NCBI GenBank assembly: GCA_020053275.1
Contig: JAGVNL010000026.1
Coordinates: forward strand, 6,416-70,415
DNA: 64,000 nucleotides
Direction: 5' to 3'
From: a bacterium
GTDB taxonomy: Bacteria > Patescibacteriota > Patescibacteriia > UBA9934
Of the stretch, positions 3,943-62,152 are shown in pieces (the first letter of the stretch is position 1; each line of letters begins with the position of its first letter). The position numbers and the translations under genes are program-made. The notes under the pieces are model-generated. The model searched no databases. It was not told the origin of the DNA and saw only the letters and a list, made by a program, of their open reading frames with translations.

Positions 3943-3983
3943 TTGACGACGCTCATCTAGCACTCTATACTTACGACTGCTAA
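3943..3983 (+). promoter_or_regulatory. sigma-A type promoter (TTGACG-N17-TATACT) overlapped by a CIRCE-like inverted repeat (CTAGCACTC-N9-GACTGCTAA), the HrcA operator upstream of clpB
   Basis: TTGACG at 3943-3948, 17-nt spacer, TATACT at 3966-3971. The inverted repeat at 3957-3983 matches the CIRCE consensus TTAGCACTC-N9-GAGTGCTAA in 15 of 18 positions. The same architecture precedes hrcA. Confidence 0.6.
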
Positions 3984-6661: not shown

Positions 6662-6671
6662 AATAAAGAAG

Positions 6672-6702
6672 AGCCCGGCCTGAGCCGAGCTTTTCATTTT
6701 TT
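6672..6702. terminator. rho-independent terminator between the convergent clpB and ppa genes, probably bidirectional
   Basis: Hairpin agcccggcc-tga-gccgagct followed by tttcatttttt; the complement carries a T-rich tail on the other strand. Confidence 0.55.
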
Positions 6703-6722
6703 AAACTACTTTCTACCAACTA

Positions 6723-7229
6723 TTATCTTTTATAATTCTCCATCGCAGCTACGATAATTTCTTTAGCAGCAGCGGCGTCGTGCCACTCCTCGATCTTCGT
6801 CATCTTTTTCTCCAATATCTTATAGCTCTCAAAGAAAAATGAAATCTCGTCCTTCAAGTGCTGCGTAACATCAGCTAAATCGGTAATATGCTTGAAGCGC
6901 ACATCATCTTTGGCCACTGCTAAAATCTTCTCGTCCTGCCCTTTATCATCGCTCATCACCAACACGCCAATCGGCCGAACATCAACGGCTACTCCAGGAA
7001 AAAGTGGATTGCTCACCATCACCAAAACATCTAGTGGATCGCCATCACCACCCAGCGTTTCTGGAAAAAATCCATAATCGCAAGGGTAAAACATTGGTGA
7101 GAACAAAACTCGATCCAGCTTGATTACGCCCTGTTCGTGATCAAACTCATACTTGTTCTGACTTCCACGAGGCACTTCTATGATTGCCTGACAAATGTCT
7201 GGTGCTTTGCTGCCGATTGTAAGTTGCAT
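6723..7229 (-). CDS. ppa: inorganic pyrophosphatase (family I)
   Basis: Family I PPase motifs 'DGDPLDVLV' and 'EIPRGS'. Start moved to the internal ATG at 7229 (168 aa) because the 203-aa ORF-track start at 7334 would overlap the divergent gene at 7318; the start choice is uncertain. Confidence 0.85.
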   Translation of the reverse strand: MQLTIGSKAPDICQAIIEVPRGSQNKYEFDHEQGVIKLDRVLFSPMFYPCDYGFFPETLGGDGDPLDVLVMVSNPLFPGVAVDVRPIGVLVMSDDKGQDEKILAVAKDDVRFKHITDLADVTQHLKDEISFFFESYKILEKKMTKIEEWHDAAAAKEIIVAAMENYKR

Positions 7230-8680: not shown

Positions 8681-9472
8681 ATGATCGTTTTTGCTGCCCA
8701 TGTTCCAAACTCTCCTCTCCTGCTGCCCTCAATCAGTGGTGACAGAATTGGTGCCGTAAAAAAAACCTGTTCGGCACTCGAACAACTCTCTGGCGAACTT
8801 TACGCAGCAAAACCAGATACCATCGTCCTCATCTCTGACCACCCAACCAGGTACAGCGAAGCCTTTTCAATTTCCGTCAGCGATCCTTTCATCGCTAATT
8901 TAGCGGAAGTCGGAGATCTCAGCTATCAAAAGTCATACCATCTAGATTTTGGTTTAATCGACGCCTTACAGCGCGGGCTACGAAAACTCGATGAACCTGT
9001 AACCCTAACCACAGATCCTCACCTCAACTTCGCATCTGCAATCCCACTTGATTATCTCACCAAGCACCTGCCAGGCATTAAACTGGTGCCAATAAGTCCG
9101 TGCGATCTTGACCCCAAATCTCATTTTAGTTTTGGCCAATCACTCAGTCACAATATAATCGAAAGCTCCAAACGCATTGCCGTAATTTCTACCGGTGACC
9201 TCGCACATACCCTTACCGACTTCGCTCCAGGCGGCCTGCATGCCAGCGGAGAACTTTATGATGACACGCTACTCACCATGCTCGAGCAACACAATGTCGT
9301 CGGTCTACTACAAATCGACGAACAACTCCGCCATGAAGCCCAAGAATCAGCCTATCATAAACTATTAATTTTGCTTGGCGTTCTAGACGGTATGCCAATT
9401 TCCACTAATTTATTAAGCTACGAATACCCATACGGAGTTGGCCTAGCCGTCATTAATTTTTTATTGGAGTAA
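8681..9472 (+). CDS. LigB/MEMO1-like protein (class III extradiol dioxygenase fold)
   Basis: N-terminal 'VFAAHVPNSPLLLP' and 'TIVLISDHP' resemble the 'HGSPM' and 'SAHW' metal-ligand motifs of the LigB/YgiD/MEMO family. Start moved to the ATG at 8681, 1 nt after the upstream stop; the ORF-track start is an in-gene TTG. Confidence 0.4.
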   Translation: MIVFAAHVPNSPLLLPSISGDRIGAVKKTCSALEQLSGELYAAKPDTIVLISDHPTRYSEAFSISVSDPFIANLAEVGDLSYQKSYHLDFGLIDALQRGLRKLDEPVTLTTDPHLNFASAIPLDYLTKHLPGIKLVPISPCDLDPKSHFSFGQSLSHNIIESSKRIAVISTGDLAHTLTDFAPGGLHASGELYDDTLLTMLEQHNVVGLLQIDEQLRHEAQESAYHKLLILLGVLDGMPISTNLLSYEYPYGVGLAVINFLLE

Positions 9473-9476
9473 TTCT

Positions 9477-11312
9477 GTGTACCTCCGAGTTTTTCCTATC
9501 CTTCGACTGCCCAGGAGGTTCGGCGTCTTTGACTACGAAATACCAGACGGACTAAATGTCTCAGCTGGAGACTTAGTGCATGTCCCTTTTCATAATCGAA
9601 TAATCCTAGCGGTTGCCGTTGCCACAACAGAACAAACCGAAGTCAGAAGTAAACTCGCTCAAGTTATAGATGTCGCTTACCATGCCGCCCTCACAGAATC
9701 AGACATCAGTCGCCTAGTGAGTCTGGCCGAATCAATTGCGCAGTCGCCCCCCACTATTTTTTTATCAACCTTCGGCAAACTCACCAACGAACAATCCGCC
9801 CCTCATCTAGTGTCGTCAAATAACTCCTCACTCTCTCTATCAAAAGACCAAGTTGAACAACTGCAGCACATTTTAAAATTAATTCGGCAGGACCCGACGA
9901 AAACTCTTACGCCCCAAAACCTCAGCGTTCAACATATCTGTTGCCAACTTGGCACCGAAGCTTCTTTTACTCTCGCCAAACTCCTCCGCCAAAAAACTAA
10001 AGAACAGATGCTCATCGTTATGCCGCGCGAACGCGATGTGGATCTTCTCGCAAAACTCATCAACCTCGGCCCGAGCACTGCCGTACTCCACGGCCACACA
10101 AAACCATACGAACGCGAAAAAATTATCCGCGCTTGGCGTTCAGGCCGCTTGTCAACATTAATCGGTACACTGCAAGCCACCCTTATCCCAGCCCAAAAAA
10201 TTGATACCGTTCTCCTCATGAACTCTGGCACAGACGATCACTTTTCTAACCGCCGCAATCCTCGCCTCGACAATCGCCTCACGGCCGCTGCACAAGCCTT
10301 ACAACATAATGCGCTCTTCATCACCACAGACTTTTTACCGCGCCCCGAAGAACTCGCTAACTCCTCATCTACTATCTACTCTCTACCTTCTACCAATCAA
10401 ATAATCATTGATCTTAAAAAACCAGACGAACAAACAGACACGCAATTACTGTCAGAAACACTCATTTCTGAGATAAATAAGGCTTTACAAAGCCGAAAAA
10501 AGGTGCTACTTTTCTACAACCGTAAGGGAGTAGCCAAACGCGTTGTCTGCTCAAGTTGCTGCGCCATGGTCATTTGCGGAGCCTGTGGCAATGTCCCGTC
10601 AATCAAGCCACCGAATGCGCATTGTCTGCGTTGCGGCAGCATCTGGCCAATCCCAGATAAATGCGGCGCCTGCACAACTGGTCGACTCAATCTCAAAGGA
10701 ATCGGTAATGCTCACCTCGAAAAAGCGTTAACAGCACTCTTCCCCGCTTTTACCGTCGGTCGCGTCGAGAAAAATCATACCGCAGGAACAGGCGCCCAAA
10801 TCCAACTTGTTACTGAGTATTTCTTTTCGAGCATCGTCAAACCATTCTCCAAAAAAGAGTATGGGTTAGTAGCGGACCTAGCAGCCGACCTGTCTCTCAA
10901 CCCAGAAAACTTTAGAGCAGAAGAAGAAACCGCCAGAAAGCTTCATCGAATATCAAACTTCGGTAAACAACAAAATGCGACTGTACTAATCCAAACATGG
11001 TTGCCGAATCTAATCGACGAAATGCGCAACGCCGAAGCATGGCTTAATAACGAAACTGCCACCCGGCAAAACTACAAACTACCACCCTTCGCCGCCCAGG
11101 TTACAGTTCGCCACGCCGACGCCGCTGCCCTCACTGCCATCACCAACCAAACATTCACCAACATTCCAGAAAAGCTTGAAGCAACCGGCCGGATTCCTTA
11201 CCATAAACTAAACGAGGTTATCACTGCAATTGCCTCACTACCTGACACCGCAGTTGTCTCTATTGATCAAACCTATGCCAGCTCTCACAGTACTCACGAA
11301 TCCAAATCCTGA
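9477..11312 (+). CDS. priA: PriA-like primosomal protein N' homolog with degenerate helicase ATPase motifs (zinc-binding module intact)
   Basis: GTG start with a GGAG Shine-Dalgarno 7 nt upstream. The N-terminal 3'-DNA-binding region aligns with PriA ('LPRRFGVFDYEIPDGLNVSAGDLVHVPFHNR'). The C4-C4 zinc module 'CSSCC...CGAC...CLRCG...CGAC' is present. Walker A reads 'GTEASFTL' instead of GSGKTEVY, Walker B DEEHD is replaced by 'NSGTDDH', and the motif VI arginine finger is absent. Confidence 0.7.
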   Translation: MYLRVFPILRLPRRFGVFDYEIPDGLNVSAGDLVHVPFHNRIILAVAVATTEQTEVRSKLAQVIDVAYHAALTESDISRLVSLAESIAQSPPTIFLSTFGKLTNEQSAPHLVSSNNSSLSLSKDQVEQLQHILKLIRQDPTKTLTPQNLSVQHICCQLGTEASFTLAKLLRQKTKEQMLIVMPRERDVDLLAKLINLGPSTAVLHGHTKPYEREKIIRAWRSGRLSTLIGTLQATLIPAQKIDTVLLMNSGTDDHFSNRRNPRLDNRLTAAAQALQHNALFITTDFLPRPEELANSSSTIYSLPSTNQIIIDLKKPDEQTDTQLLSETLISEINKALQSRKKVLLFYNRKGVAKRVVCSSCCAMVICGACGNVPSIKPPNAHCLRCGSIWPIPDKCGACTTGRLNLKGIGNAHLEKALTALFPAFTVGRVEKNHTAGTGAQIQLVTEYFFSSIVKPFSKKEYGLVADLAADLSLNPENFRAEEETARKLHRISNFGKQQNATVLIQTWLPNLIDEMRNAEAWLNNETATRQNYKLPPFAAQVTVRHADAAALTAITNQTFTNIPEKLEATGRIPYHKLNEVITAIASLPDTAVVSIDQTYASSHSTHESKS

Positions 11313-47628: not shown

Positions 47629-50178
47629 CTACAGGCCAACCGGAGGCAGGGGGACAACTGGTTGCACTTGTTTAGGCACACCGACGCCAGAACGCAGAGC
47701 AATCTCGCGCTCCACAATCTTCTTGTCGCGACCATAAAGCAAACGAGAAATTTCTTTGAGAGCCTGGCCAACTTTTGGACTGCCTTCTTGTTTATTGTCG
47801 ACGCGAAGTGTAAACGGCTTACCCTGAGCGTTGTCGATGATAATCTTACAATTCCATGTTAACGCCTCATTATTCATCAGGTCGTAAGCAGAAAATGTAG
47901 GCTCAAACACTTTCTCCAGTACCTCGGTATCATCAGGGCCGACACGCGACACAAACATGCTGCCCACATTGCCGAGCACAGCATCACGAATCTCACTCTT
48001 GCCGTCCTTCACCAACTGGCCCATATACTGGTGCGCCATGATCAAGTTAAGACGATACTTACGAGCCTCGGACAAAATAGTAGCAATACTTGGCGTCACG
48101 AAGTTTTGGAATTCGTCGACATAAAGATAAAAATCTTTGCGTTTACTCTCCTCCATATCAGCACGAGCAAAAGCCGCCATCTGCAACTTGGCCACAATAA
48201 TCAAACCAAGCAGCGACGCATTAACTTCGCCAGTTTTACCTTTAGACAAATTGACCAAAAGAATCTTACCCTCGTCCATTATTTCACGGAAGTTGAAGGC
48301 GGATTTACTTTGACCGATAATGTTACGCATCATCTCGTTCTCCACAAACCTACCAACCTTACTCACTAGATATCCCATGGTTTCACTCTTGTGGTAGTCA
48401 CTAGTCTTGGCCTGCTCATCCTCCCAGAAACTACGCACAACAGGGTCCTTAACACGAGCAATCCACTCCTTCTGGAAAGCGTCGTCCGCAATCATGCGTG
48501 GGATTTCTGCAATCGTACCAGGGTAAGTCGGGTCCGCCATCAAGGTAAGCATGAAGTTACGCATGGAGTGCTCAAACATCGGGCCGATCATTTCCGGTGG
48601 GAACAACATATAGAAGATGCTGATCATCTCCTGCACCGCAAAGTCGCGCATGTCCTCACTTGGTGCCTCCAGCATGTTTAAGCCCATTGGTCGTTCGGTA
48701 TCGCTTGGGTTGAAGTAAACAACATCATCGTATCGTTCTTTTGGAATAAGCTCCATTATGCCGTCTGCCAAGTCTCCGTGCGGATCAATAACACCAACAC
48801 CTTTACCAGCAATAATATCTTGAATAACCAAGTTCTTAATAAACTCAGACTTACCAGAACCAGTCTTACCAATAATGTACATGTGGCGACGGCGGTCACC
48901 GTCTTTGATAAATACTGGTTTTGTAGCGCCGCGATAGGTGTTGGTACCCAAACGCAAACCTTCAGTTGGCGTGTTAGTTGGGGCCGGGGCGACACGCGCC
49001 ATCATCCACAAAATATTCGGCGTATCAGTACTTGGCAACGGCAAATGCCACATAGACGCCATTTCTTCGGTATTCAAAATAATTTTCTGATACCTGGCAA
49101 AAGTACGATAAATGAAGTGCTCGATTAAACGGCGCTTGCGGAGCGGCAACACCTTCTGCAAGGAGTTACCATACTCATAAATGTTATATTGACCGAACGC
49201 TTGCAATGCATTGTTTAGGTTCGCCAACGCCATTTGAGCGGATTTCGCCGAAGAAACGATGCGAATATTTACTTCCATTCCGGCCTTAGAAATTTTATTT
49301 CCAACTCCCTCCAACATCTTAGATTCCGTTTGTGACAACTGTTTTTGATCTCTTCGTTCAGACTTTTGTTTCTCAATATCTTCTTTACTCGCAAACCAGC
49401 TACCAACAGTTTTACCCTTTTTCGCTTCTTCAAGCGACATGCCATTCTGCATGTTCCTTATAATCTTAGTACCCAGTTCACGCCAATTATGGTGAGTTGG
49501 GCGAATAATATATTGTACTACCAAACCATCGCCTTCTTCTACCTTAGACAAAGCATTGGTTAATGAATTCAACGGGTCTGAATCATTTTCTTTATAAGTC
49601 TTGAGAGGGAAAATAGACTCTCGTTTCAACTCTAAATAGCCGCCGAGAACAATGCCAGTAGTTGAAAAAATATTATAATCCTCAACCTCCTTCAAGCTGG
49701 CGTCACTATACTGAGCGTGCAACTGCTGCTGCACAAAATCATACATGTTGCGCGGTACATTAATGTAAAAAGAAACGAGCTTGTTATGAGCTACAATTTC
49801 TAATGCAATGGAATCTGTTCTCCCAGCAAACCAAGCATGAATACCAAAACCATGATGTGGTTTTACGCCACCAATAGCCGCAAAAAAAGTTTCCGCAATA
49901 GCAATCGACTCCTTAATAACTTGTGCTGTTTCATTACCCTTAGCTTCTTCTTGGTTGCGGTACCGAGGAATGGTTACTAGTAATGTAATGTTGGTATGCT
50001 TGCCTCCCTGCTGTCTAAACCTGCGATGCATCTTGTAACGCAACAGAAATATACCGCCAATTATTGCCCCAACAATCAGCAAAGCAATTATTAAACGCAA
50101 CCAAATGGACGAGCCACCGGTTGCAACATACTGTGTAGTTGCTACTTCGCCTGCAATGAGAAATAAGCCTGGAAGCAC
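47629..50178 (-). CDS. type IV secretion-type ATPase (VirD4/TraG/TraD coupling-protein-like or VirB4-like) with two N-terminal TM helices
   Basis: 849 aa. Two N-terminal TM helices, Walker A 'IIGKTGSGKSEF' at roughly residue 430, Walker B 'LYVDEFQNF' (a T4CP-like DEFxN). Confidence 0.5.
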   Translation of the reverse strand: MLPGLFLIAGEVATTQYVATGGSSIWLRLIIALLIVGAIIGGIFLLRYKMHRRFRQQGGKHTNITLLVTIPRYRNQEEAKGNETAQVIKESIAIAETFFAAIGGVKPHHGFGIHAWFAGRTDSIALEIVAHNKLVSFYINVPRNMYDFVQQQLHAQYSDASLKEVEDYNIFSTTGIVLGGYLELKRESIFPLKTYKENDSDPLNSLTNALSKVEEGDGLVVQYIIRPTHHNWRELGTKIIRNMQNGMSLEEAKKGKTVGSWFASKEDIEKQKSERRDQKQLSQTESKMLEGVGNKISKAGMEVNIRIVSSAKSAQMALANLNNALQAFGQYNIYEYGNSLQKVLPLRKRRLIEHFIYRTFARYQKIILNTEEMASMWHLPLPSTDTPNILWMMARVAPAPTNTPTEGLRLGTNTYRGATKPVFIKDGDRRRHMYIIGKTGSGKSEFIKNLVIQDIIAGKGVGVIDPHGDLADGIMELIPKERYDDVVYFNPSDTERPMGLNMLEAPSEDMRDFAVQEMISIFYMLFPPEMIGPMFEHSMRNFMLTLMADPTYPGTIAEIPRMIADDAFQKEWIARVKDPVVRSFWEDEQAKTSDYHKSETMGYLVSKVGRFVENEMMRNIIGQSKSAFNFREIMDEGKILLVNLSKGKTGEVNASLLGLIIVAKLQMAAFARADMEESKRKDFYLYVDEFQNFVTPSIATILSEARKYRLNLIMAHQYMGQLVKDGKSEIRDAVLGNVGSMFVSRVGPDDTEVLEKVFEPTFSAYDLMNNEALTWNCKIIIDNAQGKPFTLRVDNKQEGSPKVGQALKEISRLLYGRDKKIVEREIALRSGVGVPKQVQPVVPLPPVGL

Positions 50179-52115: not shown

Positions 52116-52601
52116 CTAACCGCGCAACAAGGCCATCGTAACCAACGGCGCAAAAATTAAAATCGAACGAATAATCGGATCCATAAAGACCCGAGCAAAG
52201 TTTGGTGAAAAGTCACCAGTTACTGCTAATGGCAGCATAGTTACCAAAATGACTACAACTACAATCACTTGCAATAACGAATAAACAGCTACGCGCCAGC
52301 CATGCGGATTATATACATCGTCAAAAAAAGTACTGCGCGCCAAAACGAACATCATGAGCGCCGTCATAATAGCCAATAAACCGAGCGACAACCATAAACT
52401 TGGAATTGGTATTAAAGTTTTCAGCATGGCCAGGACTGGCGCCAACAAAATAACCGCCCCAGCCAAGTACAACGCCACGAGCAGCATGATGATCCTGTAC
52501 TTACCGATAGTGTAGTTGTAAAACAACAGCACTCCAAACAAAATCACGACCGCACCAACATCAACTGGTACGCCAGCCACTAATGTATGCAAGACCTCCA
52601 T
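52116..52601 (-). CDS. small polytopic membrane protein, unknown function
   Basis: 161 aa, four or five hydrophobic helices. Confidence 0.45.
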   Translation of the reverse strand: MEVLHTLVAGVPVDVGAVVILFGVLLFYNYTIGKYRIIMLLVALYLAGAVILLAPVLAMLKTLIPIPSLWLSLGLLAIMTALMMFVLARSTFFDDVYNPHGWRVAVYSLLQVIVVVVILVTMLPLAVTGDFSPNFARVFMDPIIRSILIFAPLVTMALLRG

Positions 52602-52626
52602 GGTGAGGAAAGTATAGCATACTTAG

Positions 52627-52657
52627 AGTTGGTAGATGGTAGTTAGTAGTTGGTAGT
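52627..52657 (+). repeat. 'gtag' repeat block (ttggtag-atggtag-ttagtag-ttggtag) immediately 3' of the dnaJ stop and 5' of the membrane protein gene
   Basis: Same heptamer family as at 6633-6661 and in the elements upstream of dnaK and dnaJ. Confidence 0.5.
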
Positions 52658-53716
52658 TTATTTCTCATTCAGTTCCAGTTCTTCCAGTAACCTTCGTTGT
52701 TCTTTATCGAGCTTACGCGGCGTCACCACCTGAATAGTGACTATCTGATCACCTCGTCCTCTACCTTGTGGCACACCCTTGCCGCGTAGTCGCAGTTCCT
52801 CACCAGACTGCGTACCAGCTGGAATCTTCATGCTCACCTTGCCGTCCACTGTATCAACCTCTACTTCACAACCAAGCGCCGCCTGAGTAAAACCAACAAG
52901 CCGCGTCACAAAAATATTATCACCTTCGCGCACAAACCGAGCATCTGGTTGCACCCTTACTTGGAGGTACAAATCTCCAGCTTCACCGGCAGCACCAAGT
53001 GCCTCGCCATGCCCGCGTACTCTAATTTGCATGCCATTGTCGACGCCAGCCGGAATCTCCACTCGCACCGACTTCTTGCCTTGCTGTACGCCCTTCCCAG
53101 CACAAACAGCACAAACCTTTTCGGGCATTTCTCCGCGACCGTGACAAGCGCTACAAGCATTTCGTGTTTGAATGGTGCCAAAAACAGTGCGCTGCTGACC
53201 AATTACATGGCCCTGGCCGTTACAAGTATTACATTTCTTAAGGCTCGTTCCAGGCTCTGCACCCACGCCACCACAGCGCTCACAACTAAAAGATTTGTTG
53301 AGCGTAATCTCTTTTTCGACACCAAACACGGCCTCCTTAAACGACAATGTCACTTGCACCGCCAAGTCCTGGCCTTTCTGTCGACCGCCACCTCCCCCGC
53401 CACCAAACATATCACCAAACATGCTTCCCAAGTCGCCAAACATACTCGGGTCAAAACCTTGGAAGCCACCTTGACCACCAGCAAACGGATTACCGCCACC
53501 GCTACCATCAAACGCCGCGCTGTCAAACTGATCATACTTAGTGCGCTTTTCAGCATCACCAAGCACCTGGTAGGCCTCATTCACCTCCTTGAACTTCTCC
53601 TCTTTACCTCCCTTATCTGGGTGGTGCGTATGCGCCAATTTTCTGAACGCACTCTTAATCTCATCAGCACTCGCCGACTTACTCACTCCCAGCGTTGCGT
53701 AGTAATCTTTAGACAT
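52658..53716 (-). CDS. dnaJ: chaperone DnaJ
   Basis: J-domain 'HPDKGG', Gly/Phe region, four CxxCxGxG zinc motifs. Confidence 0.93.
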   Translation of the reverse strand: MSKDYYATLGVSKSASADEIKSAFRKLAHTHHPDKGGKEEKFKEVNEAYQVLGDAEKRTKYDQFDSAAFDGSGGGNPFAGGQGGFQGFDPSMFGDLGSMFGDMFGGGGGGGRQKGQDLAVQVTLSFKEAVFGVEKEITLNKSFSCERCGGVGAEPGTSLKKCNTCNGQGHVIGQQRTVFGTIQTRNACSACHGRGEMPEKVCAVCAGKGVQQGKKSVRVEIPAGVDNGMQIRVRGHGEALGAAGEAGDLYLQVRVQPDARFVREGDNIFVTRLVGFTQAALGCEVEVDTVDGKVSMKIPAGTQSGEELRLRGKGVPQGRGRGDQIVTIQVVTPRKLDKEQRRLLEELELNEK

Positions 53717-53723
53717 AGGTACA

Positions 53724-53771
53724 AGTTTGTAGTTGGTAGTATGTAGTTGGGCCTGCCCGGCTCCGCCGGGT
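53724..53771 (-). promoter_or_regulatory. conserved 48-nt element in the dnaJ 5' region (gtag repeats plus GC hairpin), paralogous to the element upstream of dnaK
   Basis: agtttgtag-ttggtag-tatgtag-ttgggcctgcccggctccgccgggt matches 56859-56906 at 43 of 48 positions. Contains the hairpin cccgg-ctccg-ccggg. Confidence 0.5.
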
Positions 53772-53791
53772 CTCGCGTTGACGAGAGCTTT

Positions 53792-53962
53792 CTAATCCAC
53801 AATCTTACCCTCAACTATCTTAACTCCTCTTTTTACATCAATCCTCCCAGTCACCCAACGCCTAATAAACCTAAACGATAACAGCCACATAGCGAATGAC
53901 GCCATTCCAAGTAACCCTTTTATCACCCATAATTGCTTATTAGGCGTTTGAGTGTTGGTCAT
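53792..53962 (-). CDS. candidate unannotated small single-TM protein (56 aa)
   Basis: Hand translation gives MTNTQTPNKQLWVIKGLLGMASFAMWLLSFRFIRRWVTGRIDVKRGVKIVEGKIVD. Starts 1 nt after the upstream stop and fills an otherwise empty 247-nt spacer. Confidence 0.3.
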   Translation of the reverse strand: MTNTQTPNKQLWVIKGLLGMASFAMWLLSFRFIRRWVTGRIDVKRGVKIVEGKIVD

Positions 53963-53963
53963 A

Positions 53964-54353
53964 TTATTTCGCTACTTCCGTCTTCCGTTCTGCGACCCAG
54001 TTGCAAAGAGCAATAGGTTCGCCGCCGTCAATACGCGCTGCAAAACGATACTCGCCTGCTTTATCCACCTTCAACCCGTGCATCTTGGCGATGATGTGCA
54101 CTTGCGGCCCCTTCACTGCTTGCTTGAACACGCTACTCTTGTCTACCAACACATTCTTTTCGTCCGTAATATAAATCTCCAGGTTGGCATCCACTGGTAC
54201 ATCGCGCAATCTCACGGCCAAAAAGCCATTAAGCGTAATCGGCCCTTCACCCACCGTATTCGTCCGGTCAAACACATGAGCATAAGTATAGAGCCCGTTG
54301 GTCGACTGCGTCAGAAACTCACAGAGCAAAGCGTATTCTTTTAATGGGTTCAT
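53964..54353 (-). CDS. hypothetical protein inserted between dnaK and dnaJ
   Basis: 129 aa, soluble, no motif. Confidence 0.5.
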   Translation of the reverse strand: MNPLKEYALLCEFLTQSTNGLYTYAHVFDRTNTVGEGPITLNGFLAVRLRDVPVDANLEIYITDEKNVLVDKSSVFKQAVKGPQVHIIAKMHGLKVDKAGEYRFAARIDGGEPIALCNWVAERKTEVAK

Positions 54354-54361
54354 GTATTAGC

Positions 54362-54940
54362 TTATGGTGAGTTAGGTAGATCGAGACCAATATTGCCTGT
54401 CACAAAATCATAATAATAAAGACCACCATAAATCCAGAAGTACAAACCTGGGCCAGAATACTCTAACTCTGGGCGCAATGGATCACTACCCGTTGTTTCA
54501 TCGTACGGTATGTTGTAGCCAGTAGTCCGGTCTTCATCGATCTCGAATATTTTCTGAATTGATGAGTCAAACCACAATGGATCATTGACGAATTCACGAG
54601 TAAGTTTTGTCACTCGACCTGTTTCGAACTCGGTAAATGTAAGATCAACTACAGTACCTGGTTGATCAAGTACCTCTGCACTACGAGGCTTACTCATGGT
54701 CATTTGGAAACCAAACTGACCAATCGTAACATTGTAGACACCGTCGAGCTTATACCAGCTGCCTTCGCTAAATTGATGATCATCTACACCGCCAGTTGAA
54801 GTCGGTGTATCATTTTCTGAACCTATTGTAGTTGGTAGATCCTTCACGAAGTTATTGTCGTTGTGAATTGCAACCCAAAAGATAACAAAGCAAACTGCGA
54901 GAGCTGCAACTATTACGCCGATAGTTTCTTTAAATGTCAT
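54362..54940 (-). CDS. membrane-anchored hypothetical protein inserted between dnaK and dnaJ
   Basis: N-terminal TM helix 'IGVIVAALAVCFVIFWVAI' plus a ~160-aa extracytoplasmic domain rich in Tyr, Gly and Asp. Starts 2 nt after the dnaK stop. Confidence 0.5.
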   Translation of the reverse strand: MTFKETIGVIVAALAVCFVIFWVAIHNDNNFVKDLPTTIGSENDTPTSTGGVDDHQFSEGSWYKLDGVYNVTIGQFGFQMTMSKPRSAEVLDQPGTVVDLTFTEFETGRVTKLTREFVNDPLWFDSSIQKIFEIDEDRTTGYNIPYDETTGSDPLRPELEYSGPGLYFWIYGGLYYYDFVTGNIGLDLPNSP

Positions 54941-54942
54941 AA

Positions 54943-56841
54943 TTATTCTTTTGGCGCGTCCTTAAACTCCGCATCCTTTGGCCCTTCTTCGGGCTTCGGT
55001 TCGCCGCCGTTCATATCTGGCATCGGGCCTGCACCACCATCTGCTGGTTTGTAGAAAGCCGCCCCTACGCGCTGTGCTTCCGTGGTCAAAGCGTCGGCCG
55101 CAGTCTTGATTGCCTCAACATCCTCGCCGTCCTTCACAGCTTTCACCGCCACCATCTTTTCGTCGAGAATCTTCTTATCTTCCTCACTAACCTTGTCCTT
55201 ATTGTCAGCGAGCATCTTCTCCACCGTGTAAACCATACTGTCCGCCAAGTTTCGAGTCTCAATCAATTCCTGCTTCTTCTTATCTTCCTCAGCGTGACTT
55301 TCAGCGTCGGCAGTCATCTTGGCAATCTCATCCTTACTCAAACCGGATGACGAAGTGATGGTGATGTTCTGGGTTTTATTTGTTCCCTTATCCGTTGCAG
55401 AAACATGAAGAATACCGTTTGCATCAACATCGAACTTAACCTCAATCTGTGGCGTACCACGAGGGGCTGGTGGAATACCAGAGAGATCAAACTGGCCGAG
55501 CAACTTGTTGTCGCCAAACATTGGTCGTTCACCTTGGGCGACGCGAATCGTCACGGCTGGCTGGTTGTCCGCCGCTGTACTAAAAACCTGACTCTTACTT
55601 GTAGGAATCGTGGTGTTGCGTTCAATGAGCTTGGTCATGACGCTGCCCATGGTTTCAATACCGAGCGACAACGGAGCGACATCTAGCAACAACACATCCT
55701 TTACGTCACCTTGCAACACACCAGCTTGCACAGCCGCACCAACGGCCACAACTTCGTCTGGGTTGACGCTGACATTTGGCTTCTTGCCAAAAAAATCTTC
55801 CACCTTCTTAAGTACAAGTGGCATACGGGTCATACCACCCACCATTACAATCTCCGCAATACTACCCTTGTCCATCTTGCTATCCTCGAGTGCCTTGCGC
55901 ACTGGGCCAAATGTTTGCTCAACCAAACCAGCGACAAGTTCCTCCAACTTCGAGCGAGAAATCTTGAGTACCAAGTGCTTAGGGCCTTCGTTGCTGGAAG
56001 TAATAAACGGTTGATTGACCTCAGTCTCCTGCGCGGTGGAGAGTTCAATCTTGGCGCGTTCAGCCGCGTCCTTAATACGCTGCATGGCCAAAGCGTCGCC
56101 AGACAGATCCACGCCTTCCAACTTTTTAAACTCTTCAAGAATATATTTCATGATGAGCAAGTCAAAGTCATCGCCACCTAAATGAGTGTCACCATTCGTC
56201 GCCAAAACTTCTACTGTGCCTTCGCTAACATCAAGCACGGAAACATCAAAAGTACCACCACCAAGGTCGTAAACCATTATCTTCTGGCCAACTTTCTTAT
56301 CGAAGCCGTAAGCCAAAGCCGCGGCAGTAGGTTCATTAATAATGCGCAAAACCTTGAGGCCGGCAATTTCACCAGCGTCCTTAGTCGCCTGGCGTTGCGC
56401 GTCGTCAAAATAAGCTGGAACAGTAATGACGGCCTCAGTAATGGTCTCACCAGTACGCTCTTCAGCGTCCGCCTTCATCTTGCCCAAAATCATGGCGCTG
56501 ATCTCCTGTGGCGTCATGTCCTTCTCGCCGAGCGTCACAGCCACACCTTCGCCCTTCTTAACAATGGCGTACGGCATCAACTTAATGTCGCGCTGCACTT
56601 CCTCGTCGCCAAACCGTCGGCCAATTAAACGCTTAATCGAATAAAGCGTATTCTTTGGGTTCGTCACCGCCTGCCTTTTAGCTGGCATACCAACCAATCT
56701 TTCCCCATTCTTCGCCACCGCAACTATACTCGGCGTAGTGCGCATCCCCTCCTTATTCTCCAAAACCTTTGGCTGACCACCTTCCATAATGGCCATGCAG
56801 CTGTTGGTTGTTCCTAAGTCGATACCAAGAATCTTGCTCAT
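54943..56841 (-). CDS. dnaK: chaperone DnaK (Hsp70)
   Basis: 'IDLGTTNS', 'DLGGGTFD' and other Hsp70 signatures; 632 aa. Confidence 0.95.
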
Positions 56842-56858
56842 ATATTTTTTAAGTTAGT

Positions 56859-56906
56859 AGTTTGTAGATAGTAGAATGTAGATGGGCCTGCCCAGCTCCG
56901 CCGGGT
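56859..56906 (-). promoter_or_regulatory. conserved 48-nt element in the dnaK 5' region (gtag repeats plus GC hairpin)
   Basis: agtttgtag-atagtag-aatgtag-atgggcctgcccagctccgccgggt, the paralog of 53724-53771. Confidence 0.5.
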
Positions 56907-56908
56907 AG

Positions 56909-57475
56909 TTAACTCGTTAGTTTTTCGTTCACAATCACCTTCGATGGCCTTAGCACAATCTCGCCGAGCTTCCAGCCTTTAATCAGCTCCTCGACCACTT
57001 CATGCTCTGGCCGAGCCTCGTCAAACTTACTCCCACCAGATTCGTGAATGTTAGGATTGAACGGTTCGCCCACGGCTTTGATTGGTTCAACGCCGAGCGT
57101 CTTAAGCACTTCCTCAAACTGCCGAGCGATGTGTGTTATTCCAGCAAACCAACTTTTGAGATTATCTGGCACTTCAGTTGGCGCAAACTTGATCGCCTGA
57201 TCAAAGTTATCCACAACCGGCAGTAACTCTTGCGCCATGTTGATGCGGACTCGTCGTCGATCGTCATCTCGCGCTTCCGAGTTTCGTTTCTGCAAATTCT
57301 CGTAATCGGCGAGCGCTCGTTTCCAACCTGCGAGATATTCAGCGTTTTGTTCTTCCAAAGTTGGCGTCGACCCACCTACTGGCGAGCCAGCACCCTCATT
57401 ATTTACATCCTCCCCTAGCCCCTCCATACCTGGAGAGGTATTTACAATGTCATCGTTTAAATTTTGATCGGTCAT
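56909..57475 (-). CDS. grpE: nucleotide exchange factor GrpE
   Basis: GrpE coiled-coil plus beta domain; 4-bp overlap with hrcA. Confidence 0.88.
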   Translation of the reverse strand: MTDQNLNDDIVNTSPGMEGLGEDVNNEGAGSPVGGSTPTLEEQNAEYLAGWKRALADYENLQKRNSEARDDDRRRVRINMAQELLPVVDNFDQAIKFAPTEVPDNLKSWFAGITHIARQFEEVLKTLGVEPIKAVGEPFNPNIHESGGSKFDEARPEHEVVEELIKGWKLGEIVLRPSKVIVNEKLTS

Positions 57476-58182
57476 ACATCTGTAAAATTACTATCAAGCA
57501 TTTTTTTCACTTCTTGCAGTAAACCGATGTTGCGCCCGTACTTCATTCGTAACGGCCCGAGCAGTCCGAGCAAACCAACACTCCCGTCGGGCAGTCGCAC
57601 ACGAACAACGACCGTAGCCATCTCCGCACTTATGGGACTCTCACTCCCCAGCCACACTCTAACATCCTCTTGCGCTAGCTTTAGTAAAGCGTCCACCGCG
57701 TTATCTACCCGATCAATCGCGTCAGCAATCTCTTCACGATGACCTTCTACCTCGAACTCAGGTTTACGCATCAAGTTAGATAACCCCGTGTACTGCGTGG
57801 CGTGATTGTCACTCGCCACAAAGGCTGTTTCGCCACTCATCGAGGACAATGCTCGACTGACAGCGCGCAACACTTCTTCACTCGTCGACGCTTGTCCGAC
57901 GGCGACCTTCAGCTCTGCCGCGATCCTGTCCGCTCGTTCCACTTTCATGAAGTGGTCCAGGTAATAGCGGTAGGCAGCCTCGGTTGGCACACGCCCCGCC
58001 GAAGTATGCGGCTGGAGCAGAAACAGTGCCTCGGTTAACGCCATCAAGTCATTGCGCACTGTCGCCGGCGACACCGCTGGCAAGTGAGTATCTGCAATCA
58101 TTTTGCTGGCCACTGGTTCGGCTGTGCGGATATATTCCTCCACCACAGCTCGTAATATATTGGCTTGTCGGTCATTCAACAT
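57472..58182 (-). CDS. hrcA: heat-inducible transcription repressor HrcA (short, 236 aa)
   Basis: N-terminal wHTH 'RQANILRAVVEEYIRTAEPVASKMI'. First gene of the hrcA-grpE-dnaK operon with a CIRCE element upstream. Confidence 0.85.
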   Translation of the reverse strand: MLNDRQANILRAVVEEYIRTAEPVASKMIADTHLPAVSPATVRNDLMALTEALFLLQPHTSAGRVPTEAAYRYYLDHFMKVERADRIAAELKVAVGQASTSEEVLRAVSRALSSMSGETAFVASDNHATQYTGLSNLMRKPEFEVEGHREEIADAIDRVDNAVDALLKLAQEDVRVWLGSESPISAEMATVVVRVRLPDGSVGLLGLLGPLRMKYGRNIGLLQEVKKMLDSNFTDV

Positions 58183-58196
58183 ACGCCTAAAACAAA

Positions 58197-58237
58197 TTAG
58201 CAGTCTATAGTATAGAGTGCTAACTATTCTTCGTCAA
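58197..58237 (-). promoter_or_regulatory. hrcA promoter (TTGACG-N17-TATACT on the minus strand) overlapped by CIRCE (TTAGCAGTC-N9-GAGTGCTAA)
   Basis: CIRCE at 58197-58223. The -10 is the complement of 58209-58214 and the -35 the complement of 58232-58237. Same architecture as the clpB promoter. Confidence 0.65.
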
Positions 58238-58245
58238 TAGTCATT

Positions 58246-59910
58246 TTAGGCCGCTTTTTGCTGCTTCGCGAGCTTCCGCCAACCGCTTTTTGCAATTTTC
58301 TTCTCTTTTAAGTACTGCCCCAAATGCTCGCCACCTAACACACTCGGAATAACAGCATAGGTTGCACCGAGCTTATAACAACGCGCTGCCTCCTCCGCAT
58401 TTTTTACAGTTACGATAATCGTCCCGTGAGCATGATGAGTTCGTAGGTAATCAAGCAAATCGATAGTAACTAGAATATCAGGAATAGTAGAAATTATCAG
58501 CTTCGCTCTAGCTACGCCAATAAAATGCAAAAGATCATCGCTCCCAGCGTCGCCATACATTGCAGCTATACCAGCACTCGCCAACTCTTCAATCACGACT
58601 GGATTATAATCGACAACCAGAGATGTGCCTGTCATTTTTTTAAGTTGCGGCCACAACCTACGGCCAGAGCGGCTATAACCAAAAAGTATATAATCCGCCA
58701 CCTCGGCAGACCGCTTGTCAATATGCTTACCAAGACCAAAGCGTTCCAGAACAACAGAGAAGTGTTCGTAAAGCTGTTCGTTGTAAGCAATAAAATATGA
58801 CGACAGCGTAATCGTAATCAACGCAACAATGGTAGCTAGAGCAAGCGAACTCTGCGTTACCAAACCAGCAGCAATTCCAGCCGTCAATAAAATAAATGAG
58901 AACTCACTAATCTGCGCCATGGTCGTACCAGTCAAAAAAGCAGTTCGTGGATGATAGCCTAATAACCGCATCAGTAACCAAGCGATAAGCGGATTACCCA
59001 CTAGAATATAGAGACTGATGACCACAGCCGGCAAGAGCAAAGCCTGCAAACTGCCGAGCGTCAACCCAGTACCGAGTACGATGAAGAATATAATGAGAAA
59101 AAAATCGCGCAGCGTTCGAATCTTTGCTTCAATCTCGTGCTGAAATCCACTAGCTGCCAAACTAATACCAGCCAACAACGCACCAATTTCAATACTAAAA
59201 CCAATATTAAGTAATATCGACGCCACCGCAAAACACCAACCAAGCGCCACCAAAAATAGTAATTCTTGCGAACGAGCAACAAACTTAAACAATAACGGCA
59301 ACACCGTTTTTGATAATAAGAAAAGGGCAACAACTACCAATACGCCCTTAACTAGTGATGTTGTTACAATTTGCGAAATAGAACCACCGTCATGCCAAGC
59401 ACCAAGCATGAGTAGCGCAAACATGGCCATCATGTCCTGCACAATTAGCATGCCGACGCTGATCCGACCGTAAAGCCGATCAAGGTCGTCTTTATCCGAC
59501 AGCAGCTTAACAATAATGATGGTTGACGAGAATGAAAACGCTAGGCCTAAAAATAAGCTCGTCGTTGTATCAAACCCAAGTGCGGTAGTAATGCCGTAAC
59601 CAATCGCGGAAGTAATAATCACCTGACAAATACCACCAATAAGAACAACTGGCCCGACATCACGAATACTCCGCCAATTCAGATTCAATCCCACAATAAA
59701 CAACAAGAGCGCAATCCCAAACTTTGACAAGCCACCAAGCACATCCGTGGACTGCACCAAGTTCATCACCCCCGGCCCCACCAATACACCAGTCAAAATG
59801 TATGCAATAATCAGCGGTTGCCTTAATTTATACGCCAAAATTGCGAGTATTCCCGCTATCACCATGACAACTCCCACCTCTACAAATAAATACTCCATCA
59901 TAGCCTCCAA
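58246..59910 (-). CDS. monovalent cation:proton antiporter (CPA2, Kef-type) with a C-terminal TrkA-N/RCK domain
   Basis: 554 aa. About 12 TM helices plus a C-terminal Rossmann-like 'GYSRSGRRL...' RCK domain. Confidence 0.8.
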   Translation of the reverse strand: MEAMMEYLFVEVGVVMVIAGILAILAYKLRQPLIIAYILTGVLVGPGVMNLVQSTDVLGGLSKFGIALLLFIVGLNLNWRSIRDVGPVVLIGGICQVIITSAIGYGITTALGFDTTTSLFLGLAFSFSSTIIIVKLLSDKDDLDRLYGRISVGMLIVQDMMAMFALLMLGAWHDGGSISQIVTTSLVKGVLVVVALFLLSKTVLPLLFKFVARSQELLFLVALGWCFAVASILLNIGFSIEIGALLAGISLAASGFQHEIEAKIRTLRDFFLIIFFIVLGTGLTLGSLQALLLPAVVISLYILVGNPLIAWLLMRLLGYHPRTAFLTGTTMAQISEFSFILLTAGIAAGLVTQSSLALATIVALITITLSSYFIAYNEQLYEHFSVVLERFGLGKHIDKRSAEVADYILFGYSRSGRRLWPQLKKMTGTSLVVDYNPVVIEELASAGIAAMYGDAGSDDLLHFIGVARAKLIISTIPDILVTIDLLDYLRTHHAHGTIIVTVKNAEEAARCYKLGATYAVIPSVLGGEHLGQYLKEKKIAKSGWRKLAKQQKAA

Positions 59911-60427: not shown

Positions 60428-60460
60428 ACAAAAATACCTGACATCTGTCAGGTATTTTTT
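60428..60460. terminator. bidirectional rho-independent terminator between the repeat-protein gene and tRNA-Glu
   Basis: Perfect stem aaaaatacctgaca-tct-tgtcaggtattttt. Confidence 0.65.
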
Positions 60461-60534
60461 GGTGACTCTACCGGGAATCGAACCCGGATTAAAGGCTTGA
60501 GAAGCCTCTGTCCTAACCGTTAGACGATAGAGCC
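60460..60534 (-). tRNA. tRNA-Glu (anticodon CUC), CCA encoded
   Basis: GGCTCTA...TTCGATTCC...TAGAGTC-A-CCA. Anticodon loop UUCUCAA. Confidence 0.75.
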
Positions 60535-60658
60535 ATGCTCTTAATTTCGTGCGAAGTGTAGCAAAACTAAGAATAAAAACAAGACCCCACGCCAGAAACG
60601 ACACGAGGCCGCTCCGGGTGGAGTACCTGTCGCCTAGCACGGGGTAGAAGTTCGCAGC

Positions 60659-61243
60659 CTACTGGCCATCAGCCTCGACTGTAGCGAAATAGTCGAACAC
60701 CGCCTGGTTGTTGCTGATCTTGGCTACAACCATGACACTATCAATGGCCTGCCAGCCGAGTGCCAAGCCAATCAGGTGATCCGCCAGCTCGTCGACAGGT
60801 GAAGCAAAACCCGAGGTCGAGACGATCCGTTCGCACTCCCCCATACGAACAGCACCCTGGTAGATGTGCTCCATGGAGTTGCGGCTACTCGTGTCCTGGA
60901 TCTCGAAGCTGAGGACACGGTCGTCGTACAAGCTGAGGCTGTACCCCTTCTTGATGCTGTGAAAGCCGTAGCGCAGCGACTGGTCCGCACTGATGTCGCC
61001 GATGGACACCACACAGATCAGCTTCCAGTGCGTGATTGGTTCGATCACCTTCTCCCACAGGGCAACGCAACAACCAGTGTCGGTTGGGTCGCCGCGCAAG
61101 GCGATGGGGATGACGATGTCTGTCACCACCCGGCGAGCAACCGCTGCAAAATGAGCCATGAAGGCTTCTTCTCGAGGAGTTCTTTTGATGTCGTCAATAA
61201 GCAAAGTAGCCTCACAGAGTTGAGTATGCCACAGGGAATCCAT
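60659..61243 (-). CDS. hypothetical protein in a high-GC islet, divergent from 61398-62147
   Basis: 194 aa; about 58-60% GC with GC3-biased codons; no motif. Several overlapping shadow ORFs were ignored. Confidence 0.45.
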   Translation of the reverse strand: MDSLWHTQLCEATLLIDDIKRTPREEAFMAHFAAVARRVVTDIVIPIALRGDPTDTGCCVALWEKVIEPITHWKLICVVSIGDISADQSLRYGFHSIKKGYSLSLYDDRVLSFEIQDTSSRNSMEHIYQGAVRMGECERIVSTSGFASPVDELADHLIGLALGWQAIDSVMVVAKISNNQAVFDYFATVEADGQ

Positions 61244-61280
61244 AGCAATACCATCAGACTAACAGAATATATTGCTTGCG

Positions 61281-61313
61281 TCCACTTAGTGGAGTCGTCT
61301 TCCACTAAGTGGA
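61281..61313. promoter_or_regulatory. double-palindrome operator-like site (TCCACTTAGTGGA-N7-TCCACTAAGTGGA) in the divergent promoter region
   Basis: Two 13-bp self-complementary half-sites in mirrored arrangement between the two GC-rich genes. Confidence 0.5.
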
Positions 61314-61397
61314 ATGAGTTGACCAAAAAACTAAAATGGGCTAATCTCAGCCTCGTCGATTGCTGGCAATCAAGCCAAAACTCGACCTGGAGCACTC

Positions 61398-62147
61398 ATG
61401 TCCATCGAACTCGTCAAAACTGAGCCAGCCAACCCAACCTCACAGGACGACAACACGAGCCTGGAACTCCACGGCCTCATGCCTCGCCCGTATATCGACA
61501 TCGTCCTCGAGCACCTAGCACTGCTCGCCGACACTCCCCGTTGCGACTGGCTGGCCGGCAATGTCCCCTTCGGCCAGTTGCCTCCCAACCTGCAGGGTCT
61601 CGCCGAGCTGCTGATCTGCGACGAGCTGGCCTGTCTGATTGGCCTGTTCATCCCCGAGGGCATCCGCGCCACCACCTGCAACAAGATCGTGCGCTACCTC
61701 AAGGCCATCAGCAAGAAGGTCAGCGGGATCGACAACCGTCTGTGCGTTGCCCTCGCCATCACCTGGTTCAACGACTACCGACGAGACAGGCAGAGCCTCA
61801 GTCCACAGATCCTCGACGCCGATCAGCGTGCCATCAACGCCATCACGGCGCTGAACCACGAGCCGCTAGCTCGCTGGTCGTTCAACAGTCGTACCTACAA
61901 GGAGCTCAACTCTGAGGGCAATGTGGCTATCCACGACTTGGTGGAGAACACCGTCGTCTGGCGCATCGACCGTATGGTCAAGCGAGTAGAGATCCCGGCC
62001 AGCCGCCGCCCCGCCACCTGCCATCGCCTGATCAGCGAGCTCAAGCATCTCAACGACTGGCGCGTCAGTAGAGCCTCGAACCGTCAGGTTGTTCTGCACA
62101 ACCAGGTCTGGCTCGCCCGCTACCGTGAAGGGTTGCTGCGGCCATGA
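61398..62147 (+). CDS. hypothetical protein in a high-GC islet
   Basis: 249 aa, GGAG 8 nt upstream, own terminator, strongly GC3-biased codons (ctc, gac, ggc, atc, aag). Confidence 0.5.
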   Translation: MSIELVKTEPANPTSQDDNTSLELHGLMPRPYIDIVLEHLALLADTPRCDWLAGNVPFGQLPPNLQGLAELLICDELACLIGLFIPEGIRATTCNKIVRYLKAISKKVSGIDNRLCVALAITWFNDYRRDRQSLSPQILDADQRAINAITALNHEPLARWSFNSRTYKELNSEGNVAIHDLVENTVVWRIDRMVKRVEIPASRRPATCHRLISELKHLNDWRVSRASNRQVVLHNQVWLARYREGLLRP

Positions 62148-62152
62148 CCCCT

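Follow-up and report, generated by a model that had tools for sequence, protein, structure and literature searches.

Tandem CTAC heptads maintained within an Uhrbacteria genus, and a hairpin that is not, make up the paired leader elements of dnaK and dnaJ

Why should dnaK and dnaJ, two genes of the same operon separated by three others, be preceded by almost the same 48 nucleotides? The question is raised by a 64,000-nt stretch of a patescibacterial genome (assembly GCA_020053275.1, contig JAGVNL010000026.1, positions 6,416 to 70,415; hereafter the window), in which the heat-shock genes lie on the minus strand in the order hrcA-grpE-dnaK-X-Y-s56-dnaJ as one tightly packed unit. In a first-pass annotation of this DNA each 48-mer was described as three heptamers followed by a hairpin, and the pair was taken for conserved 5' untranslated region (5'UTR) or intercistronic signals, possibly acting as processing or stability sites, translational enhancers or thermosensors. 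We found that each 48-mer is a composite of two elements with separate histories, an array of 7-nt units built on the motif CTAC and a GC-rich hairpin, and that the two fare very differently in related genomes. The genes concerned are as follows.

58182-57472, minus strand: hrcA (Pfam HrcA match)
57475-56909, minus strand: grpE (Pfam GrpE match)
56841-54943, minus strand: dnaK
54940-54362, minus strand: gene X, 192 aa, with an N-terminal membrane anchor
54353-53964, minus strand: gene Y, 129 aa (Pfam DUF6941 match)
53962-53792, minus strand: s56, gene for a 56-aa peptide with a single transmembrane (TM) segment, adjoining dnaJ
53716-52658, minus strand: dnaJ
52601-52116, minus strand: mem161, gene for a 161-aa membrane protein

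The junctions within the hrcA...dnaJ unit measure −4 to 8 nt with two exceptions only, the 67-nt gap between grpE and dnaK and the 75-nt gap between s56 and dnaJ, a layout consistent with the single long operon proposed earlier; both 48-mers sit in these gaps. On the coding strand (minus) they run from 56906 to 56859 and from 53771 to 53724. The reported identity at 43 of 48 positions holds, and the similarity ends sharply on both sides, although the distances to the ATG are 17 nt (dnaK) and 7 nt (dnaJ) rather than the 18 and 8 nt given at first. Sense-strand scans of both gaps returned no consensus promoter, as the first-pass annotation had stated, and no U-tract terminator; the totals of promoter and terminator matches were no higher than in shuffled sequence. 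Neither 48-mer contains a match to the operator of HrcA, the controlling inverted repeat of chaperone expression (CIRCE).

The composite nature of the 48-mers becomes apparent once their parts are located separately.

56857..56881, minus strand: array before dnaK, four units (CTACATT CTACTAT CTACAAA CTAC), ending 15 nt before the ATG at 56841
56884..56905, minus strand: GC hairpin, dnaK-leader copy, CCCGGCGGAGCTGGGCAGGCCC; the first C also belongs to a CTAC unit
53729..53746, minus strand: array before dnaJ, three units, 12 nt from the ATG at 53716; the conserved AAACTTGTACCT stands between the two
53749..53770, minus strand: GC hairpin, dnaJ-leader copy, CCCGGCGGAGCCGGGCAGGCCC
52632..52656, minus strand: array after dnaJ, four units, no hairpin, directly 3' of the dnaJ stop codon
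6637..6661, minus strand: array in the convergent clpB/ppa spacer, four units; the plus strand reads GTAG four times
6668..6702, no strand assigned: bidirectional terminator hairpin, core CCCGGCCTGAGCCGAG, with T-tracts, between inverted GTAG and CTAC arrays
6706..6723, plus strand: short array beyond the terminator, two units and one degenerate unit
10369..10393, plus strand: array inside the priA coding sequence, four units in sense orientation, encoding part of a hypervariable linker

The 22-nt GC hairpin (CCCGGCGGAGCYGGGCAGGCCC) matches only 56884-56905 and 53749-53770 in the window, even when up to 3 mismatches are allowed, with 0 matches expected by chance. It folds into a 6-bp stem with a GGA loop, and the sole difference between the copies (C/T) turns a G-C pair into G-U and thus keeps the pairing. 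The heptamers, equally real, extend beyond dnaK and dnaJ: there are arrays at five loci, namely before dnaK, before dnaJ, after dnaJ, in the clpB/ppa spacer and inside priA. Nor are there just three heptamers in the dnaK leader, which has four CTAC units 3' of the hairpin and one further unit 5' of it (56905-56908), immediately 3' of the grpE stop codon. In the dnaJ leader the GC hairpin is preceded by a second small hairpin (CTCTCG TCAA CGCGAG) at about 53772-53787. The array halves of the 48-mers resemble each other as any pair of CTAC arrays would. It is this presence of the hairpin at two sites only, as against arrays at five loci, together with a sister species that lacks the hairpin and keeps the arrays, that reveals the 48-mers as composites.

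An array consists of 3-5 tandem, head-to-tail 7-nt units, each made of an invariant CTAC core and a variable 3-nt spacer without G. The pattern CTAC-N3-CTAC-N3-CTAC matches the window 11 times against an expectation of 0.15. Four of the five loci are intergenic, though intergenic DNA makes up only 10.5% of the window, and three of these four fall within 4.3 kb. A density of five loci in 64 kb hints at many sets dispersed over the genome, although three of the five belong to one operon. G is almost wholly excluded: over 12 arrays of the genus it occupies 1 of 135 spacer positions, compared with a G content of 28% on this strand. Because it is G-free, an array can neither fold on itself nor hold an AUG, GUG, UUG or a run resembling a Shine-Dalgarno (SD) sequence, and in predicted minimum free energy folds the arrays are unpaired throughout. 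On the opposite strand, where the units read GTAG, three of them are enough to close every frame with a TAG, and at clpB the GTAG array indeed supplies the TAG stop codon (6645-6647). The clpB/ppa spacer region, arrays and terminator together, folds with a z-score of about −5. The array in priA covers codons ~296-308 and encodes the linker peptide SSSTIYSLPSTNQ, where relatives have unrelated sequence one residue shorter; the gene looks as though it had received a copied patch of array. The array after dnaJ lies 31 nt from the start of mem161, with a promoter box in between that is kept as TGTTATACT in the sister species:

52611..52619, minus strand: extended −10 promoter-like box TGCTATACT, 9 nt 5' of the mem161 ATG, a spacing of the leaderless type

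Are the arrays anything more than a curiosity of one contig? A DnaK search placed the window in Candidatus Uhrbacteria (Patescibacteria) and yielded related loci at 70-99% DnaK identity; the main comparison is with a sister species whose DnaJ is 91% identical and which is represented by four assemblies (L201-L204). All three arrays of the dnaK operon are in place in this species, so the idea of a conserved intercistronic element survives for the heptamers. At fourfold-degenerate sites of five genes, window and sister species agree at 353 of 678 positions (52%), which is near saturation. Against this background the CTAC cores of the three operon arrays are identical at 46 of 47 positions (Fisher p ~1e-11 versus the fourfold sites), while the array spacers, identical at 22 of 33, do not differ from the neutral rate; the register of the arrays between the two was confirmed by MAFFT. 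Four units make up the dnaK array in each of the three lineages examined (the window, the relative L001 and the sister species, L003/L201). In the sister species the dnaJ leader has four units and an identical 12-nt tail before the ATG, the spacer following dnaJ is identical at 62 of 70 positions, and the flanks of the arrays are conserved as well. The contrast between near-invariant cores and drifting spacers and synonymous sites argues that the arrays are maintained, and by this sequence comparison they are shown to behave as maintained cis elements of this Uhrbacteria genus. The pattern points to constraint on the motif CUAC (or CTAC), on a strict 7-nt phase and on a G-free context. One heptamer match beside grpE in another related locus (L028) proved to be G-containing coding sequence of a different family and was set aside.

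The hairpin has a different record. It is absent from the dnaK leader of L001 and from both leaders of the sister species, so that the comparison of leaders proposed in the first-pass annotation separates the two parts of the 48-mer: the arrays are found again, the hairpin is not, and for the hairpin this is the outcome that the annotation itself had named as refuting. In the dnaK leader, alignment with L001 and L003 (MAFFT) revealed a clean 27-nt indel within the array, bounded by AACTAC and ATCTAC, and the hairpin lies in this indel with (A/T)CTAC on either side. In the dnaJ leader of the sister species nothing homologous to the hairpin is found upstream of the array; instead, the window's hairpin is placed exactly at the junction of a ~515-nt indel, the extra sequence belonging to the sister species and comprising a long stem-loop and a membrane ORF (open reading frame) of 93-110 aa whose stop codon lies within the array. 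More distant Uhrbacteria have neither arrays nor hairpin, which leaves a gain of the hairpin in the window lineage indistinguishable from losses elsewhere. By these comparisons the hairpin is shown to be a lineage-specific rather than a conserved module. A small mobile element of the repetitive extragenic palindrome (REP) or miniature inverted-repeat transposable element (MITE) kind was also considered for it: a search of the window and 1.48 Mb of related loci, the latter with up to 5 mismatches, gave only the two copies, of which the dnaK one is flanked by AACTAC and ATCTAC, and nothing further beyond chance-level matches. Its simplest origin would be ectopic copying or deletion between CTAC repeats.

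The stem-loop in the extra sequence of the sister species deserves mention in its own right. In L201, at 9434-9610, between the gene for the small TM peptide and the extra ORF upstream of dnaJ, there is a near-perfect stem-loop of ~175 nt (−74 kcal/mol for the 176-nt stretch folded). It is absent from the window, is possibly a structured RNA or else a small insertion, and contains the point at which contig DOZH01000009 of the NCBI assembly breaks off.

Could the hairpin nevertheless act on dnaK and dnaJ in the window itself? It lies 45-55 nt from the AUG, and no fold predicted at 20 to 50 °C pairs it with the start region (−12 to +6). Over this range the mean probability that the region is unpaired goes from 0.61 at 20 °C to 0.81 at 50 °C in the case of dnaK; for dnaJ the figures are 0.43 and 0.50. 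A thermosensor, as suggested in the first-pass annotation, is thus not borne out: there is no SD sequence to mask, the hairpin never pairs with the AUG region, predicted accessibility barely shifts, and Rfam has no match. An intrinsic terminator or attenuator was likewise rejected, since CAGGCCCA(A/U)CUAC, and no U-run, comes after the hairpins of dnaK and dnaJ; only the clpB/ppa hairpin qualifies. A conserved structured non-coding RNA fails on three counts, namely the absence of the hairpin in relatives, fold z-scores of the hairpin leaders that are not significant (−0.01 and −0.67), and the lack of an Rfam family, the Rfam scans (whole window at gathering threshold, 52500-58400 at E <= 1) having returned three tRNAs only and nothing in the dnaK and dnaJ leaders. 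The effect of the hairpin is probably small: at most, as a 3' structure, it would stabilise or insulate the cistron upstream. The conspicuous hairpin that suggested dedicated paralogous regulators is, in other words, the dispensable part.

What, then, might the arrays be kept for? A clue may come from the way translation appears to start in this genome. SD-like motifs precede just 8 of 67 crude gene calls in the window. First genes often carry TATAAT 6-9 nt ahead of the ATG, a spacing of the leaderless type, and for most internal genes the coupling to the preceding one is tight; examples of TATAAT or extended −10 boxes 6-9 nt before starts are found at 7318, 16025, 50689, 52601 and 34227. To judge from these motifs, the data point to widespread leaderless or SD-independent initiation in this genome. 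This uncultured lineage thus makes almost no use of SD sequences; among the papers listed in a literature search, none linked Patescibacteria to SD usage. In this SD-poor genome the arrays, which are conserved, without G and unstructured, occupy the only long gaps of an otherwise coupled operon. For these reasons we tentatively favour the view that selection keeps them as intercistronic leaders, unstructured and devoid of start codons, that help translation to begin independently of an SD sequence. In the mRNA the CTAC array would form a single-stranded platform 12-18 nt before the start codons of dnaK and dnaJ, at which ribosomes would initiate on internal cistrons that lie too far from the preceding stop codon to be coupled directly. 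Such ribosomes might arrive through S1 or another protein that binds single-stranded RNA (ssRNA), or be post-termination ribosomes scanning the spacer.

Several observations weigh against this view. A forward array near an SD-less start is present at dnaK (15 nt) and dnaJ (12 nt) but not at clpB/ppa or priA; the clpB/ppa arrays flank a terminator and the priA array lies in a coding sequence, and neither fits a leader role. The array after dnaJ is upstream of the mem161 −10 box and would be missing from mem161's own transcript. The hairpin in the dnaK leader, standing between the grpE stop codon and the array, would hinder simple scanning by ribosomes. The idea that dnaK and dnaJ are the only genes without another initiation signal had to be dropped, as a crude classification found no coupling, promoter or SD signal in 21 of 61 genes. 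At the clpB/ppa site, one relative (L207) has symmetric arrays of 4+4 units, whereas two others (L205, L206) have the hairpin only, and arrays can therefore be gained or lost. Finally, concerted evolution through slippage or gene conversion could mimic constraint, although the heterogeneous spacers and the stable unit number disfavour simple slippage. Because the arrays at clpB/ppa, in priA and after dnaJ do not fit a pure leader role, the arrays may instead have a broader role, as a protein-binding motif used in several contexts, or none, as a tolerated repeat.

A wider view of array contexts was sought in metagenomes. The matches to (CTAC-HHH)n are heterogeneous, many of them resembling eukaryotic telomere or satellite repeats, and they support coarse orientation counts only. 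Among the matches listed, to which all of the following counts refer, arrays occur in many unrelated contigs with GC contents from 0.32 to 0.73. For 41 of 97 usable arrays, an ORF on the GTAG-reading strand, 80 aa or longer, ends in the array or no more than 40 nt from it, and for 21 an ORF starts no more than 40 nt downstream on the CTAC-reading strand, for example 4-13 nt after the array in L134, L136 and L092; the two opposite arrangements of array and ORF account for 12 and 13 of the 97. Both recurrent placements exist in the window, the ORF end at clpB and the ORF start at dnaK and dnaJ. It is also common for a terminator to be enclosed by an inverted pair, GTAG...hairpin...CTAC, as for example at clpB/ppa in the window and in L207, and in L083, L101, L104 and L199. 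In L081-L200, ORFs ending at arrays often take the array's own TAG as their stop codon, with a marked orientation bias.

These data have to be set against other explanations. The arrays might be neutral or selfish heptanucleotide simple sequence repeats (SSRs), arising by slippage or local gene conversion, tolerated where and in whichever orientation they are harmless, and devoid of any function of their own; this we consider somewhat unlikely. It would agree with heptameric SSRs being over-represented in bacterial intergenic DNA (PMC4692102), the presence or absence of arrays at the clpB/ppa site among close relatives, the array in a hypervariable priA linker, and the varied contexts of the metagenome matches; local spread would also account for three of the four intergenic loci falling so close together. 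It would not be expected to leave cores nearly invariant where neutral sites have drifted to 52% identity, to hold the number of units constant over three lineages, to keep G out of the spacers or to conserve the flanks, and slippage should homogenise whole units, whereas the spacers differ from unit to unit. That the arrays are instead binding sites of a stress regulator, protein or RNA, that co-ordinates the chaperone genes is unlikely. Its appeal lies in the company the arrays keep, as all four intergenic loci touch dnaK, dnaJ or clpB although by a rough estimate only ~6 of ~30 sizeable spacers touch chaperone genes, which would be improbable if the loci were independent, and as CIRCE marks two promoters, that of hrcA and one upstream of clpB, as HrcA-controlled. 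Direct heptad repeats do serve as operators in other stress systems, the CtsR box being an example. But three of the four loci share one operon and are not independent, the orientation varies (CUAC in the leaders of dnaK and dnaJ, but GUAG at the clpB 3' end), none of the arrays coincides with the promoters, L205 and L206 do without the clpB array, and metagenome arrays precede unrelated genes, such as a DnaQ-like ORF in L136.

The remaining explanations assign the arrays, or the whole 48-mers, a more specific function at the RNA level. We regard as quite improbable the original proposal of a dedicated 5'UTR or intercistronic RNA signal for dnaK and dnaJ, made of hairpin and heptamers together and serving as thermosensor, processing or stability site. 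It gains some plausibility from the 43/48 identity and the pairing-preserving difference in the hairpin, from the position of the hairpin soon after the upstream stop codon, where a 3' stabiliser might be expected, and from the precedent of the Bacillus subtilis dnaK operon, whose mRNA is processed; a signal of this kind is difficult to reconcile with orthologous leaders that have no hairpin in the closest relatives, with near-constant accessibility from 20 to 50 °C and no pairing with the start region, and with the unremarkable folding and the missing Rfam match. Still less probable, in our assessment, is that GUAG-array RNAs pair with the CUAC arrays in trans or as antisense. The candidates would be the clpB 3' tail, with its four GUAG units and terminator, and an antisense transcript of the dnaK leader consisting of a GUAG array, the hairpin and a T-rich tail. 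Predicted duplexes between the clpB 3' tail and the arrays reach −31 to −46 kcal/mol compared with about −19 ± 3 for shuffled targets, the tail has an 18-nt perfect match to the array after dnaJ, and on the plus strand 56819-56846 resembles a promoter, while weak hairpins resembling terminators occur at 56902-56916 and 53771-53786. Such complementarity is, though, a trivial consequence of shared repeats, promoter- and terminator-like matches are as frequent in shuffled sequence, and the clpB array is missing from L205 and L206, yet L201-L204, taken as the same sister species, keep the operon arrays. Least credible of all is a role in attenuating transcription between cistrons as Rho-loading (rut) sites: like such sites the arrays are C-rich, without G, unstructured and directly 3' of stop codons, but they are just 18-32 nt long when typical rut regions span 60-80 nt; what is conserved is the CUAC core and not YC dimers, and attenuation right before essential chaperone genes would bring no obvious benefit. 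One may also imagine that CUAC arrays constitute a lineage-specific code for initiation or recruitment at internal cistrons of the candidate phyla radiation (CPR) in place of the SD sequence, the 7-nt phase being read by a multi-domain ssRNA-binding protein or the ribosome, and that RNAs with complementary GUAG arrays, for example the clpB 3' tail, act in trans to tune chaperone synthesis; this is speculative, and we would be surprised if it were true.

How do the arrays relate to known repeats? Heptamer tandem repeats are over-represented in bacterial intergenic DNA. The closest parallel is the TAACTGA direct repeat of marine Beggiatoaceae and some Cyanobacteria and Bacteroidetes, which occurs in sets of 2-6, mostly forward and a few nucleotides from SD-less starts (MacGregor 2015, PMC4679880), and for which the RNA was predicted to be unstructured and a role in translation was proposed, with S1, Csp and CsrA-like proteins as candidate binders (PMC4679880). 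The CTAC arrays resemble it in their 7-nt tandem units, in being overwhelmingly intergenic with occasional placement over ORF ends or inside ORFs, in the predicted lack of RNA structure and in an SD-poor host genome; even the string TAACT is shared (TAACTAC here, TAACTGA in Beggiatoaceae). They differ in that only CTAC is fixed while the spacer varies (C/T/A, A, A/T/C), in contrast to the mostly perfect copies of the G-containing TAACTGA, in being G-free, in belonging to Patescibacteria (CPR), in their direct cross-species core conservation and in the frequency of inverted GTAG/CTAC pairs around terminators, of which one inverted case was reported for TAACTGA. Other heptamers are the short tandemly repeated repetitive (STRR) sequences of heterocystous cyanobacteria and the GGGAATC and GGGGA(T/C)T repeats of Xanthomonas and Nostoc (PMC4692102), and reporter work in Nostoc indicates a regulatory role for heptamer repeats near start codons (10.1101/2022.06.06.494920). 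Intergenic enrichment, frequent inverted stem-loop arrangements and variation in length and sequence between close relatives are common to these and the CTAC arrays, but the former are G-rich or mixed and capable of forming G-quadruplexes, whereas the latter contain no G and have no predicted structure of their own. The unit found here (CTAC plus a G-free 3-mer) differs from those of described families such as TAACTGA, CCCCAGT or GGGAATC, and a literature search with 14-mers from these arrays did not find CTAC-type repeat strings. Outside bacteria, the omega leader of tobacco mosaic virus (TMV), which is unstructured, G-poor and CA-rich with short direct repeats and CAA motifs, promotes SD-independent initiation; the resemblance lies in the unstructured, G-poor leader with short direct repeats, although TMV omega is viral/eukaryotic and has no strict 7-nt phase. 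With ROSE and fourU thermometers the 48-mers share a hairpin in the 5' region of a heat-shock gene, but the hairpin here masks neither an SD nor the AUG, has no predicted melting switch and is not conserved. The arrays are, then, a variant of a poorly understood intergenic heptamer-repeat phenomenon, with a different unit and in a different host phylum. While the TAACTGA and STRR cases rest on position statistics within single genomes, what is new here is the cross-species contrast, in which core and 7-nt phase are near-perfect (46/47) as spacers and synonymous sites drift; this contrast also pinpoints the bases to mutate.

Turning to the rest of the operon, CIRCE was said to occur only upstream of hrcA. 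The pattern TTAGCACTC-N9-GAGTGCTAA in fact has two matches in the window, and with the second of them clpB appears to belong to the HrcA regulon here.

58197-58223, minus strand: CIRCE operator, overlapping the sigma-70-like hrcA promoter TTGACG-17-TATACT (58237-58209)
3957-3983: second CIRCE, CTAGCACTC-N9-GACTGCTAA, 2 mismatches, overlapping a TATACT box upstream of clpB

The three genes between dnaK and dnaJ exist as first described, with gene Y now identified as a DUF6941 protein, but they are not the anomaly they were thought to be. At least 8 related loci have a DUF6941 gene between dnaK and dnaJ, five ORFs occupy this interval in the sister species, and across Patescibacteria the gap between the two genes ranges from ~6 nt to ~2.8 kb. 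The interval is thus a variable cargo slot in which extra genes are normal for the lineage. Gene X, which matched no protein family, is strain-specific cargo, its place being taken in the sister species by a second DUF6941 paralogue and other small ORFs. For gene Y a database search returned 33 homologues, all named sources being Uhrbacteria or other Patescibacteria, and structure prediction gave an all-beta immunoglobulin-like sandwich (pLDDT, the predicted local distance difference test, 74) with merely generic structural neighbours. The 56-aa TM peptide is 59% identical to its counterpart in the sister species and is kept beside dnaJ; similar peptides with a C-terminal K(V/I)IDxE motif are encoded upstream of dnaJ in L004, L011 and L044. 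A single-TM peptide of this type with a K(V/I)IDxE-like motif may be a conserved partner of dnaJ in several Uhrbacteria.

A few observations concern the window at large. Exact look-ups of its DnaJ, and of a homologue (P0121) that is fully identical to its ppa product wherever the two align, returned no record. The GC skew of the plus strand is about −0.2 in nearly every 2-kb bin irrespective of gene orientation, and this uniformly negative skew suggests that the 64 kb lie on one replichore with unusually strong strand asymmetry. Beside tRNA-Glu (60460-60534), the region 60460-62150 has a GC content of 0.53 and long ORFs overlapping on both strands, and may be foreign or integrated DNA. Adjoining the cysS-dnaJ neighbourhood, at 47629-50178, an 849-aa VirB4/TrwB-like ATPase is encoded, whose orthologue in the sister species has the Pfam matches DUF8128, T4SS-DNA_transf and TrwB_AAD_bind, the arrangement being conserved.

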